Shown: one piece after another, positions 176 through 4,278 of the stretch | Layout of the letters: every line of letters begins with the position of its first letter | Position numbering within the stretch: position 1 is the first letter of the stretch | Assembly: GCA_944327405.1 (NCBI GenBank) | Contig: CALVHK010000001.1 | Span: 1 to 39,617, forward strand | Length of the DNA stretch: 39,617 nt | DNA from: an uncultured Bacilli bacterium | GTDB taxonomy: Bacteria > Bacillota_I > Bacilli_A > RF39 > UBA660 | Direction of reading: 5' to 3' | Translations under genes and position numbers: made by a program | Notes under the pieces: generated by a model | What the model was told of the DNA's origin: nothing | Databases searched by the model: none | What the model saw: only the letters and a program-made list of their open reading frames with translations

Positions 176-811
176 TTATGGTATGGACCTTTCACTTAAA
201 ATATAATCCTCTAAATTAGGAACAGTAGCTAAAAAATCTTTAAGCAAACTAGAGTCAAATCCTCGAGATTCTAAAACACTCACAAATGATTCTACGGATG
301 ATTGGTTATCTATTAAATACAGTTCTACTTCACCCTGTTTAGTAAGAACAAGTTCTTCATAATCTTCATAAGGAAGATCATCATTCCAAACAGATGTGAT
401 TAAACCCATGGCAAATAACTCGGATATAGCAGTTAGCTCTACCTCATTAAACATATATTTTAAATCTGCCATATTAATTAATGGTAAGTGTTTTATCTTT
501 CTTAAAACAAACATATTCATATCTAGGCTAGATAAATACTCTTTAACAATATCTCCTTGCTTTTGTTCTAAATGTTTTCTTAAAGAATAAGGGTTTTCTT
601 TAATTGGAGAAATATTGCTGTCTAATGTTAGATTGTCTTTTAAGGAAACAATATTTAAAAAATGCTGAATATATTTCGATAAATCACCAACTTCATCCAA
701 GACTACTCGATTCTTTAATCCTCCTGTTAAAAGAGTTATATCAAGGCTATCTACCCATTTAAATTTAAGGATTGCTCCTGCTAATAATTGCTCTAAAGTT
801 ATTTTTTCCAT
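176..811 (-). CDS. hypothetical protein (211 aa), no recognisable motif
   Basis: Long ORF with a GAGGTG RBS 5 nt upstream of the ATG. An imperfect long hairpin lies downstream (about 52-119). I recognise no catalytic or family motifs. Confidence 0.55.
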   Translation of the reverse strand: MEKITLEQLLAGAILKFKWVDSLDITLLTGGLKNRVVLDEVGDLSKYIQHFLNIVSLKDNLTLDSNISPIKENPYSLRKHLEQKQGDIVKEYLSSLDMNMFVLRKIKHLPLINMADLKYMFNEVELTAISELFAMGLITSVWNDDLPYEDYEELVLTKQGEVELYLIDNQSSVESFVSVLESRGFDSSLLKDFLATVPNLEDYILSERSIP

Positions 812-961
812 TTTAACACCTCATAAAATGAGTATAATACTAAACTTAGAAAAAATCTATACTCTTTACGTAAATTATACAATAAAAGAAAAAGCCATAT
901 TGAACCGAATAAAGCCTTTAATCATTCAAGAGTGACTAATATGTACTATATTTTTTTAAAT

Positions 962-1348
962 TCATTTTAGTTCTTTCAACATTTTTTCTTTATTTTTTAA
1001 ATTATCAGCAACTCTAACTGGCGATCCATTAACTGTATGTACGTGATCGATATATTTTTCTAATGTTGGAAAGGCATTTTGTAATAATATTACTGATTTT
1101 TTATTAGCAATTTCGCCTATCATTATGGATCGACAATCACCATATTTTTTAATCTTCTTATCTATTATAGGCTGATATTTCTCCACTTTACTACTTAAAG
1201 GAATAAACCATAAGATATCTTTATCTTTGATTGTAAAATAAGTAGGTCTTTTTTTACCACGTTCATGATTAGTCATAAGATTTTCGTCATTAACTACATC
1301 AAAAAATTCATCTTTTATGTGATATAAATATCCTGTTTGTACTTTCAT
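962..1348 (-). CDS. type III toxin-antitoxin system toxin, ToxN/AbiQ/CptN-like endoribonuclease (128 aa)
   Basis: The N-terminal layout 'YLYHIKDEFF..KKRPTYF..WFIPLSSKVEKY' matches the RP / hydrophobic-PLSS-K-x-x-K pattern of ToxN/AbiQ-type toxins. A GAAGGGGGG RBS sits 7 nt upstream. The gene lies directly downstream of a tandem-repeat array and a terminator, which is the diagnostic type III TA architecture. Confidence 0.6.
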   Translation of the reverse strand: MKVQTGYLYHIKDEFFDVVNDENLMTNHERGKKRPTYFTIKDKDILWFIPLSSKVEKYQPIIDKKIKKYGDCRSIMIGEIANKKSVILLQNAFPTLEKYIDHVHTVNGSPVRVADNLKNKEKMLKELK

Positions 1349-1383
1349 ATTGTTGCCCCCCTTCTAAAAAATATTATACCATA

Positions 1384-1421
1384 AACCAAAAGAAAACTCT
1401 ATTCAAAAGAATAAAGTTTTC
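1384..1421 (-). terminator. rho-independent terminator between the antitoxin repeats and the toxin gene
   Basis: On the minus strand: GAAAACU-u-UAUUC-uuuu-GAAUA-g-AGUUUUC, followed by UUUUGGUUUAU. That is 7+5 bp of stem with one internal mismatch. Confidence 0.55.
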
Positions 1422-1526
1422 AAACATTTTCCTTCGGAATAATTTATTACTCGCGCCATCCGTAAGCGAGAAACATTGTCGACCGGAATCATTTATTACT
1501 CGCACCATCCGTAAGCGAGAAACATT
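1422..1526 (-). ncRNA. candidate type III antitoxin RNA array: 2 full 49-nt direct repeats plus a 7-nt partial copy
   Basis: Units 1429-1477 and 1478-1526 are 43/49 identical. AAACATT recurs at 1422, 1471 and 1520, a period of 49. Each unit contains the hairpin CTCGC-N11-GCGAG on the transcribed strand. There is no ORF. Confidence 0.6.
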
Positions 1527-1558
1527 TTCAAGTTATTGCACTTCATCAATGCAATATA

Positions 1559-1587
1559 AATATACTATATTTTTATCCAAATGTCAA
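1559..1587 (-). promoter_or_regulatory. sigma-A type promoter for the repeat-toxin operon
   Basis: Minus strand has TTGACA (1587-1582), a 17-nt spacer and TATATT (1564-1559), about 30 nt upstream of the first repeat. Confidence 0.5.
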
Positions 1588-1650
1588 TTAGTATATTCAT
1601 TTTAATATACGCAATAATCTTGAATTAAATACAACTTTTACATCACTTTT

Positions 1651-4278
1651 TTATTTTCCAGATTTAATTTTTGCTTGAGCTGCCGCAAGTCTAGCAATTG
1701 GAACACGGAATGGACTGCACGATACATAATCAAGGCCTACGCTTTCACAGAATTCAATACTAGCAGGATCACCACCATGTTCTCCACATACACCTAAGTG
1801 AATATCCGGTCTAGTTTTTCTTCCTTTTTCTACAGCAATCTTAATAAGTTCGCCTACACCTTCAGTATCTAACTTAGCAAATGGATCAGACTCAAAGATT
1901 TGATTTTTATAGTAATCATTTAAGAATTTACCAGCATCATCTCTTGAGAATCCATAGGTCATTTGAGTTAAGTCGTTGGTTCCAAATGAGAAGAATTCAG
2001 CATATTCAGCAATTTTATCAGCAGTTAAGGCTGCTCTAGGTATTTCGATCATGGTTCCTACATGGTAAATTAAATCGACACCTGCTTCTTTGATTAACTT
2101 GTCTGCTTCTTCGCAAACAATATCACGCACAAATTTAAGTTCTTTAACATCTCCAACTAGTGGAATCATAATCTCTGGAGTGACTTGAATACCTTCCTTA
2201 CCTACATTAATGGCTGCTTCAATAACTGCTCTTGTTTGCATTCTGGCAATCTCTGGATAAGTAACAGCAAGACGGCAACCTCTGTGTCCCATCATTGGGT
2301 TAAATTCTTTTAAGGATTCAACACGTTTCTTTAGTACTTCAAAACTCATGCCTAAGCTTTCAGCTAAAGGTTTAATTTCTTCATCCGTATGTGGTAAAAA
2401 TTCATGAAGTGGTGGGTCTAAGAAACGAATGGTAACACTATATGGTGCCATGGCTTTAAATAATTCTTCAAAGTCACCTCTTTGATAAGGTAAAATATCT
2501 TCTAAGGCTGCCTCTCTTTGCTCAAGTGTTTCTGCCGTAATCATCTTTCTAAAATTAAATATTCTATCACTTTCAAAGAACATATGCTCTGTACGGCAAA
2601 GGCCAATTCCTTCAGCCCCAAACTTACGAGCTTGAATGGCATCTCTTGGAGTATCGGCATTGGTACGAACACGCATTCTTCTAGCCTCATCAGCCCAATT
2701 CATAAATGTTTCGAAATCACCACTAATACTTGGTTCTTCCGTTTTAATTAAGCCATCGTAAACTCTTCCAGTAGAACCGTCTAAACTTATTTCGTCTCCT
2801 TCATGATAAACATGACCCTCTTTTGTCGTAAGGGTTTTAGCCTCTTCATCAATAGAAAGTTCGCCACAACCAGATACACAACAACGTCCCATACCACGAG
2901 CAACAACAGCAGCATGGCTAGTCATTCCACCACGAATAGTTAAAATTCCTTCAGCATGATTCATACCTTCAATATCTTCTGGAGAAGTTTCTAGTCTTAC
3001 TAAAATTGTTTTTTCACCCATATTAGAATGTTCGGTTACATCTTCAGCAGTAAAATAGATTTTACCAGCTCCTGCTCCAGGTGATGCAGCAAGTCCACTG
3101 GCTATCACTTTACCATTTTTTAACGCATCAGCGTTGAATGTTGGATGCAGTAAGCTATCAAGTTGTTTAGGTTCAACTTTAAGTAATGCTTCTTCTTTGG
3201 TAATTAAGCCTTCTGATACTAAATCTACAGCAATTTTTAAGGCAGCTGTAGCAGTTCTCTTACCATTTCTTGTTTGAAGCATGAAAAGTTTGCCATTTTC
3301 AATCGTAAATTCCATATCTTGCATGTCTTTGTAATGATTTTCTAGAGTTTTAGCGATTCTTGCAAACTCCTTATATACTTCTGGCATCGTGTCTTCAAGC
3401 TTACTAATTGGCTCTGGTGTACGAATACCGGCTACAACATCTTCCCCTTGCGCATTAATTAAATACTCACCATAAAGTTTAGCCTCACCTGTTGCTGGAT
3501 TTCTTGTAAATGCAACACCGGTACCGGAAGTTTCTCCGCGGTTTCCGTAAACCATTTCTTGAACGTTTACAGCAGTTCCCCAACTGGATGGAATATCATT
3601 CATTCTTCTATAATAAATTGCCCGTTCATTATTCCAACTTCTAAATACAGCGGTTACTGCTTCAATTAGTTGTACTTTAGGGTCTTGAGGAAAATCTTCC
3701 CCTGCTATATCCTTGTAGATATTTTTAAATTCATTGGTTACCTCAACCATATCTTCATCCGTTAGATCCGTATCAAATTTAGCGCCTTTAGCTTCCTTTA
3801 TCTCATCTAAGCGTCTTTCAAAACTTGATTTTGGATAACCTTTTACTACATCTGCAAACATTTGAATAAATCTACGATAAGAATCGTATACAAATCTTTT
3901 GTTACCAGTTGTGTTGGCAAAGCCTTCTGCTACTTCATCATTCAAACCTAAGTTTAGGACTGTATCCATCATACCTGGCATACTTGCACGAGCTCCACTA
4001 CGAACACTTACTAGTAATGGATTTTCCCTGTCTCCTAATGTTTTTCCCGTAATTTGTTCTAGTTCAGCTAATTTAGCATAAATTTCTTCCTTAATGCCTT
4101 CGTCTATAACTTCCTTATCCTCATAATACTTATTACAAGCTTCGGTTGTAACAGTAAAACCTCTTGGAACAGGTAGTCCAATGGAAGTCATTTCTGCTAA
4201 ATTGGCTCCTTTACCACCTAGTAATTCTTTCATGTCTTTATTACCTTCTGAAAAAAGGTAAACGTATTTTTTTTCCAT
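1651..4278 (-). CDS. ppdK: pyruvate, phosphate dikinase
   Basis: 875 aa. The N-terminus is 'LLGGKGANLAEM', the phospho-histidine loop is 'GGMTSHAAVVARGMG', and a PEP-utilising C-terminal domain is present ('GLCRTEHMF'). Confidence 0.95.
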   Translation of the reverse strand: MEKKYVYLFSEGNKDMKELLGGKGANLAEMTSIGLPVPRGFTVTTEACNKYYEDKEVIDEGIKEEIYAKLAELEQITGKTLGDRENPLLVSVRSGARASMPGMMDTVLNLGLNDEVAEGFANTTGNKRFVYDSYRRFIQMFADVVKGYPKSSFERRLDEIKEAKGAKFDTDLTDEDMVEVTNEFKNIYKDIAGEDFPQDPKVQLIEAVTAVFRSWNNERAIYYRRMNDIPSSWGTAVNVQEMVYGNRGETSGTGVAFTRNPATGEAKLYGEYLINAQGEDVVAGIRTPEPISKLEDTMPEVYKEFARIAKTLENHYKDMQDMEFTIENGKLFMLQTRNGKRTATAALKIAVDLVSEGLITKEEALLKVEPKQLDSLLHPTFNADALKNGKVIASGLAASPGAGAGKIYFTAEDVTEHSNMGEKTILVRLETSPEDIEGMNHAEGILTIRGGMTSHAAVVARGMGRCCVSGCGELSIDEEAKTLTTKEGHVYHEGDEISLDGSTGRVYDGLIKTEEPSISGDFETFMNWADEARRMRVRTNADTPRDAIQARKFGAEGIGLCRTEHMFFESDRIFNFRKMITAETLEQREAALEDILPYQRGDFEELFKAMAPYSVTIRFLDPPLHEFLPHTDEEIKPLAESLGMSFEVLKKRVESLKEFNPMMGHRGCRLAVTYPEIARMQTRAVIEAAINVGKEGIQVTPEIMIPLVGDVKELKFVRDIVCEEADKLIKEAGVDLIYHVGTMIEIPRAALTADKIAEYAEFFSFGTNDLTQMTYGFSRDDAGKFLNDYYKNQIFESDPFAKLDTEGVGELIKIAVEKGRKTRPDIHLGVCGEHGGDPASIEFCESVGLDYVSCSPFRVPIARLAAAQAKIKSGK

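Follow-up and report, generated by a model that had tools for sequence, protein, structure and literature searches.

A CptIN-family type III toxin-antitoxin locus with an internal deletion in its toxin gene on the chromosome of an uncultured Bacilli bacterium

Close to one end of contig CALVHK010000001.1, from an uncultured Bacilli bacterium, a short array of direct repeats is followed by a transcription terminator and a gene for a protein of 128 residues. To which family of type III (RNA-protein) toxin-antitoxin (TA) systems does this locus belong, why is its toxin so short, and is it likely still to work? The window, as we call the whole stretch analysed, comprises positions 1-39617 of the contig (39,617 nucleotides), and all elements of the locus lie on its minus strand, in the order promoter, two 49-nt repeats plus a partial third, terminator, Shine-Dalgarno sequence and 128-aa open reading frame (ORF). 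The original prediction had read each of these elements, along with a CTCGC-N11-GCGAG hairpin inside each repeat, accurately to the base. It took them for a complete type III locus, nearer to CptI than to ToxI, with a toxin so short that it might represent a divergent or unclassified subfamily, and it implied a role in the abortion of phage infection. We find instead that this is not a new kind of system: it is a known one, CptIN, with an internal deletion in its toxin and with a promoter-like motif that is found throughout the clade.

Identity of the toxin and its missing segment

The toxin gene occupies 1348..962. On NF047359.1, the NCBIfam equivalog model of CptIN toxins (cut-off 90), its product reaches 140.2 bits (E 4.4e-41), the alignment covering profile positions 1-120 of 150. 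In a search of the PDB the sole significant match was chain A of 4RMO, the CptN of Eubacterium rectale (E 2.4e-16), and a profile built from full-length relatives of the window toxin matched the same structure at E 2.2e-23 over residues 8-150. No ToxN/AbiQ chain in the PDB was retrieved at E-values up to 10, either with the single sequence or with the family profile, and no Pfam family, ToxN_toxin included, matches the window toxin at E-values up to 10. Scans of NCBIfam, Pfam and PADLOC matched only the CptIN family and gave no TenpN, although the inclusion of a TenpN model in those libraries is unconfirmed. Because of the equivalog score, the match to 4RMO and the absence of ToxN/AbiQ matches we conclude that the window protein is, by homology, CptN, and neither a ToxN/AbiQ protein nor the founder of a new subfamily. 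The profile comparison thus upholds the earlier preference for a CptI-like over a ToxI-like system. PADLOC also returned a weak match of the window toxin to NsnC (E 7.8e-4, 17 bits, profile positions 35-141 of 312), which may reflect a shared toxin-like domain or chance.

The motif RP...PLSS-K, already picked out in the original prediction, is real, and its PLSSK portion holds the catalytic Ser-Ser-Arg/Lys triad of CptN. By alignment to 4RMO, the Ser-Ser-Arg triad of the E. rectale protein (CptN_Er) corresponds to S52, S53 and K54, with Lys in place of Arg, and its Ser85 to S85, so that the triad and this serine are conserved between the two homologous toxins. Asp81 and Tyr104 of CptN_Er align, in contrast, with N82 and H104, and both substitutions are invariant across the clade studied here. 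The six predicted active-site residues (S52, S53, K54, N82, S85 and H104) are retained in the short protein.

As for its length, a search of the protein collection returned four near-identical 128-aa variants and then a continuous series of relatives, mostly of 155-158 aa, that are 85-89% identical to the window toxin over its first 120 residues; for the nearest full-length relatives, of 155-158 aa, the identity is given as 85-90%. We fetched 80 related genomic loci, plus contigs carrying the 128-aa alleles. Among the species-representative loci, 76 of 80 encode a toxin of 152-165 aa and none encodes the 128-aa form. Aligned with these relatives, the window toxin shows a single internal, in-frame gap: after ...DNLKNK the 27 residues ILENFNSLLALKKQGINLFFADIDKIK are missing, and the sequence resumes with EKMLKELK. 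The DNA alignment likewise contains a single 81-nt gap, flanked by A-rich near-repeats, and the junction lies at 991..986, between codon 120 (AAA) and codon 121 (GAA). In the nearest of the species representatives (L001) a full-length toxin gene, with a product 90% identical to the window toxin, stands at the equivalent site downstream of ppdK, the C-terminal 300 residues encoded by the two ppdK genes being 94% identical. Since this ppdK-adjacent counterpart is full-length and none of the 80 representatives is short, the deletion arose inside the window's own lineage. Neither the missing 27 residues nor a second copy of cptIN was found elsewhere in the window.

Few parts of the family are as well conserved as the lost segment. 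In full-length relatives it contains eight invariant and ten nearly invariant positions, includes ten hydrophobic residues, and aligns to residues ~122-148 of 4RMO. In CptN, Ile73, Val129, Met132 and Phe139 make up a hydrophobic pocket for a flipped-out base of the RNA 5' tail, at the larger protein-RNA interface (PMC4627078). The counterparts of Val129, Met132 and Phe139, namely L128, L131 and L138, all lie within the deleted part, which accordingly carries three of the four pocket residues. The window toxin therefore does not have the full toxin fold, in the sense of C-terminal helix plus base pocket, whereas its full-length relatives have the pocket residues. AlphaFold2 models, which were used solely for noting predicted C-terminal helices, reached a mean predicted local distance difference test (pLDDT) score of 43 for a full-length relative and 42 for the window protein, from shallow alignments of ~30 close sequences each.

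Other CptN alleles shortened at the C-terminus recur in the clade, whether as true truncations or as products of contig ends. They include one protein of 142 aa found on 65 contigs (P0032), another of 145 aa (P0034), five more proteins (P0011, P0012, P0054, P0066 and P0067), and the toxins of loci L026 (145 aa), L028 (133 aa) and L079 (72 aa).

A working or a decaying locus

Variation among carriers of the short allele bears on whether it still functions. The comparison covered the 128-aa allele in 19 sequences, namely that of the window and those of 18 further contigs. Across the toxin gene there are exactly three polymorphisms, all nonsynonymous and none synonymous (D17V, P50H and L96S), and each falls at a residue that is invariant in full-length relatives, P50H adjoining the catalytic serines. 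The neighbouring ppdK, on the same contigs, shows three nonsynonymous and 25 synonymous differences (Fisher one-sided p = 0.0044 against the toxin gene). Upstream of the repeats, the antitoxin or operon promoter P1 (1587..1559) consists in the window of TTGACA (1587-1582), a 17-nt spacer and TATATT (1564-1559), with 11 of 12 consensus matches. Five of the sequences extend as far as P1, and in two of these it is damaged: L094 has lost both hexamers in a 59-nt deletion between TATTGC repeats (660-690), and a 6-nt deletion in L090 (790-815) has reduced the spacer from 17 to 11 nt. Should the toxin gene have an active promoter of its own, P2 (see below), loss of P1 would be tolerable only with a harmless toxin, and it thus fits a decaying locus.

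On balance we favour, with moderate confidence, an early stage of TA decay, in which a recent deletion attenuated or killed the toxin and constraint on the locus was then relaxed, the antitoxin remaining intact. Shortened alleles are common elsewhere in the clade, and such a course would have precedents: by 2012, full repeat arrays followed by truncated cptN genes had been described (PMC3401426), among them two of 66 and 45 aa in Bryantella formatexigens, one of 54 aa in Lachnospiraceae 9_1_43BFAA, and others. The window resembles these in having a short toxin gene behind an intact antitoxin array and terminator; it differs in that they are shorter, partial toxins, whereas here the loss is internal and in frame, with the catalytic residues and the native C-terminus kept. 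All elements of the layout are present, but the claim that the locus is complete is doubtful given the deletion of a conserved RNA-pocket segment and population data that point to decay.

The alternative, possible but in our view distinctly the less probable of the two, is a fully functional CptIN whose shortened yet active RNase is inhibited by the 49-nt pseudoknot, perhaps through an altered protein-RNA interface or assembly. Several observations speak for it and so weigh against decay. The deletion is in frame, the last eight residues are kept and every mapped active-site residue is in place. Over codons 1-120 the ratio of nonsynonymous to synonymous substitution rates (dN/dS) between the window and full-length relatives is 0.08-0.11, no higher than between pairs of full-length toxins, and the corresponding test for long-term relaxed selection found no relaxation; either the deletion is recent, therefore, or the short protein is still constrained. 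Nor is the allele an isolated one, as it occurs across many samples, from several studies. In the window itself the antitoxin promoter, array and terminator show no damage, nor does the Shine-Dalgarno sequence, and its repeat units match those paired with full-length toxins. The related Kid fold, moreover, does without the long ToxN-type helix (PMC4627078). The evidence for decay also has limits of its own, in that the polymorphism test is based on just three toxin variants, the promoter deletions derive from metagenome assemblies, and models with pLDDT of 42-43 are too poor to judge the folding of the short protein.

Nevertheless, a working short toxin would have to dispense with 27 residues that are among the best conserved of its family, including the counterparts of V129, M132 and F139, and to do so with an RNA 5' tail that shows no compensating change. 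The window units are not degenerate, and identical or near-identical ones accompany full-length toxins elsewhere (L001_r2, L029_r2). The three nonsynonymous and no synonymous polymorphisms, at invariant residues, also speak against it, and the loss of or damage to P1 in two strains would be intolerable with an active toxin under its own promoter. From the deletion and the pattern of polymorphism, both observed directly, we infer a loss of toxicity.

The antitoxin RNA and comparison with known systems

The case for CptIN does not rest with the toxin. The two tandem repeats, if taken to start at AUGUUU, run from 1525..1477 (unit 1) and 1476..1428 (unit 2); in the register originally proposed they are 1526..1478 and 1477..1429. 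They are identical at 43 of 49 positions (88%). Unit 1 comprises the AUGUUU tail, a first stem S1 (CUCGC/GCGAG, the hairpin of the original prediction), a second stem S2 (CGGA/UCCG), an A-rich loop UAAUAAAUGAU and the 3' tail GUCGACA, and the S1 and S2 pairings of unit 2 are as in unit 1. A partial third copy of 7-10 nt, beginning AUGUUUG (1427..1421), provides a junction at the 3' end of unit 2, brings the total to 2.1 copies and runs into the stem of the terminator. The latter (1421..1382) has a 13-bp stem (1421..1392) followed by UUUUGGUUU, its T-run reading TTTTGGTTT, and is the sole terminator-like site within 700..1900, where shuffled sequences give 0.2. A 5' leader hairpin, GCAUU-GAUGA-AGUGC (1552..1538), is predicted at the start of the CptI precursor in both minimum free energy and centroid folds. 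Relatives show, by eye, a hairpin of different sequence at the equivalent place, and it may act as a 5' stabiliser. A 44-aa ORF that overlaps the repeats (1374..1508) was taken to be spurious because the region is conserved as an RNA structure.

The arrangement is widely shared. Among the loci whose upstream sequence was long enough, 81 contain two (seldom four) units of ~48-52 nt, always at the same distance from the toxin gene as in the window. In relatives the units end ~70-90 nt before the toxin start, and at nearly all loci the terminator comes next, at the equivalent position to that in the window but with differing stem sequences. Given this agreement in unit size and placement at 81 loci, the array is no chance match, even though Tandem Repeats Finder (minimum score 30) did not report it and it was recovered by a direct-repeat search and a period scan. 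A pipeline dependent on Tandem Repeats Finder would overlook the cptIN locus.

An alignment of 102 distinct units allowed the pairing to be assessed by covariation, taking S1 as columns 8-12 with 26-30 and S2 as columns 14-19 with 42-47, so that the first strand of S2 sits inside the loop of S1. Across these units 85.7% of cells form standard pairs, a figure that drops to 52.8% or less if the 3' partners are shifted by 1-3 columns. Double-sided changes number 155, compared with 55 +/- 5.5 in shuffled alignments, and none of 500 shuffles reached 155. All six pairs of S2 show compensatory changes (for example CGGA/UCCG, UGGA/UCCA, CGAG/CUCG and CCAGG/CCUGG), although the outermost is mostly unpaired, leaving a core S2 of 4-5 bp. 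Covariation therefore supports a repeat RNA predicted to fold as an H-type pseudoknot of CptI architecture, and the pseudoknot potential raised for the 49-nt unit is borne out. The single-sequence fold of the precursor (z = -1.7) is uninformative for a pseudoknot. Rfam gave no family at gathering scores, and permissive E-values produced chance matches only (Yfr10 and SmY on the terminator).

Comparison with the CptI of E. rectale, whose sequence we reconstructed from a published primer and residue numbers (PMC4627078), shows the same plan in both. A 6-nt 5' tail precedes a 5-bp S1 with one strand of S2 in its loop; after an A-rich loop come the other strand of S2 and a 3' tail whose last base is A. 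The 5' tails are both U-rich (AUGUUU here, AAGUUU in E. rectale), and the A-rich second loops, AUAUAAAUG in E. rectale and the UAAUAAAUGAU of the window, share AUAAAU. The E. rectale unit is shorter, at 45 nt as against 49, with the A-rich loop and the 3' tail each ~2 nt longer in the window. By analogy, the precursor is probably cut as A^AUGUU at each of its three junctions; in relatives the base preceding AUG is not always A.

Some relatives have unusual arrays. At L021 there are four CptI units, with an S2 that is different in each yet internally complementary. At L051 a portion of a third unit, of a different length class, lies just upstream of the two that were counted. L057 carries a tandem array upstream of its cptIN promoter, ~212-378 nt ahead of the toxin start; the period is 44 nt, with ~22-nt GATATTGATTTGATATAGGTTT sub-units, and there are ~3.8 copies.

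How, then, does the locus compare with those already described? The CptIN loci available for comparison are those of E. rectale (PDB 4RMO; Rao et al. 2015, PMC4627078), Coprococcus catus and Ruminococcus torques (Blower et al. 2012, PMC3401426). The window shares with them a chromosomal location and the order promoter, about two tandem repeats, terminator and toxin, and differs in the conserved extended -10 motif past the terminator. Its toxin also differs from CptN_Er in lacking the 27 residues equivalent to ~122-148 of 4RMO. The 2012 survey gave ranges for cptIN of 40-48 nt for the repeats and 1.9-3.4 for the copy number (PMC3401426); the window unit exceeds the former by 1 nt, and the relatives have 48-52 nt and two to four copies. 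ToxIN (Pectobacterium, Bacillus thuringiensis) and AbiQ (Lactococcus) are likewise type III systems: the toxin is an endoribonuclease held in check by a repeated pseudoknot RNA that it also processes, and a terminator lies between the RNA and the toxin gene. Their toxins have no detectable sequence similarity to that of the window, however, ToxI consists of more copies of a ~36-nt unit, and the complexes formed are heterohexamers. Judged by its toxin, its RNA and a layout as in known systems, the window locus is a chromosomal CptIN-family type III TA module.

The implied link to phage abortion is weak for this family. Abortion of phage infection has been demonstrated for ToxIN/AbiQ and for no CptIN; the two CptIN loci studied experimentally gave plasmid stabilisation or TA action and no phage resistance in E. 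coli (PMC3401426, PMC4627078). A defence role for the window locus must, for that reason, be regarded as speculative.

These results leave very little room for a divergent or unclassified type III subfamily, or for ToxN/AbiQ in place of CptN, readings that are refuted at the level of sequence and that we regard as highly improbable. A length of 128 aa is indeed below that of typical type III toxins, no Pfam family is matched and the repeat unit lies 1 nt outside the published range, but the three families of type III are defined by toxin sequence, the score is above the curated CptIN equivalog cut-off, the only significant match in the PDB is CptN, and a single in-frame deletion relative to relatives of 155-158 aa explains the shortness. 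Still less credible is a locus that is no TA module at all, its repeats being a cis-regulatory leader or attenuator of an unrelated small protein or a chance duplication: the mere two copies, the silence of Tandem Repeats Finder and the lack of an Rfam match might suggest it, but a homologue of the protein has been validated experimentally as a toxin, the layout of repeats, terminator and gene is kept in ~80 genomes, and covariation supports the pseudoknot of the CptIN crystal structure.

Expression, genomic setting and significance

In reviews, type III loci are portrayed as bicistronic operons transcribed from one promoter (PMC5086642). In the window, an extended -10 promoter-like element, TGGTATAAT (1381..1373), lies between the terminator and the Shine-Dalgarno sequence GAAGGGGGG (1364..1356), the latter 7 nt upstream of the ATG. 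Of 77 distinct relatives, 63 have the pattern TGnTAnnnT 22-50 nt ahead of the start codon, whereas shuffled sequences give 9.6 +/- 2.9 (maximum 21); in 22 cases the position is exactly -28. Several of the loci with longer spacers also show, by eye, a -35-like hexamer (TTGACG or TTGCAA) ahead of the motif. This conservation suggests a separate toxin promoter, the candidate P2, contrary to the single-promoter description. The placement resembles that in promoter-coupled terminators (Fletcher et al., 2026 preprint, 10.64898/2026.08.19.745784), where a -10 element is found just downstream of the T-tract between tandem, functionally related units, but here the -10 begins 9 nt past the T-run, and the predicted distance from termination to transcription start is ~20 nt, compared with a reported mode of 10 nt. 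One could go further and suppose that CptIN in this clade has its own toxin promoter, with the toxin:antitoxin ratio set by two promoters in the manner of a promoter-coupled terminator, and, separately, that the 128-aa protein is a naturally minimised, RNA-cutting CptN that does without the C-terminal helix and base pocket; this we put forward only tentatively, as an unlikely proposal.

By analogy with the E. rectale system, a strong P1 would drive a short precursor containing the 5' hairpin, two 49-nt CptI units, the partial third and the intrinsic terminator. Each unit would fold as an H-type pseudoknot, with a 5-bp S1, a 4-5-bp S2 formed between the S1 loop and the downstream UCCG, and an A-rich loop. 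Cleavage by the CptN endoribonuclease would take place in the A-rich junctions, probably at A^AUGUU, and the enzyme would be kept inactive within a closed ring of protein and RNA. Beyond the terminator, the toxin gene would be reached by read-through and possibly also from its own extended -10 promoter. In the lineage of the window, a deletion of 81 nt between the A-rich near-repeats has removed 27 conserved residues while the catalytic ones stayed, the loss comprising most of the C-terminal helix and the part downstream of it, including three of the four residues of the pocket for the 5'-tail base.

The locus lies on the chromosome between ppdK (4278..1651) and a 211-aa gene without a Pfam match (811..176). 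Of the 34 ORFs in the window that reach 120 aa or more, 32 lie on the minus strand, and the remaining two, on the plus strand, fall inside longer minus-strand ORFs; the guanine-plus-cytosine (GC) content is 26-38% and the GC skew is negative throughout. All of this would fit one replichore of a low-GC genome with a strong strand bias. The relatives belong to metagenome-assembled genomes of uncultured gut bacteria, labelled Bacilli, Tenericutes, Erysipelotrichaceae or Clostridium sp. CAG:628. Since ~40 of the 80 loci have ppdK no more than 3 kb upstream, the region downstream of this gene looks like a shared or long-held cptIN site. Several genomes contain two cptIN loci (L026 with L044, L008 with L043, L012 with L077, and L014 with L052).

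More distant CptN relatives, of 35-38% identity, are encoded on 17 plasmids, such as NZ_CP048628.1 of Megamonas funiformis and several from Clostridium perfringens; the 2012 survey had found cptIN on chromosomes only (PMC3401426). A search of the phage collection yielded no relative of CptN. In L082 (681-3458) an identical 128-aa toxin gene is followed by genes for a phage integrase and a KdgM-family porin, which are not the usual neighbours, so that a chimeric assembly or a relocated copy is possible. The gene downstream of cptN in the window (811..176, minus strand) shows a stop-codon polymorphism among strains (L084-L087, L089, L091 and L095), giving products of 211 or 226 aa, and its variants are mostly nonsynonymous.

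Together with its relatives, the locus extends CptIN by a well-supported subclade among gut Bacilli that are uncultured and have small genomes; the units are of 48-52 nt, and a genome often contains two loci. For the CptI pseudoknot, both stems had been known from one crystal structure and are now confirmed by natural covariation. If P2 is active, the toxin would not depend solely on read-through of the terminator, and the view of how toxin dosage is set would change. The window allele is a natural deletion of a conserved segment of the toxin, and might as such serve as a probe of structure and function. It also illustrates a possible course of decay in chromosomal type III loci, in which the toxin is lost first and the antitoxin kept.

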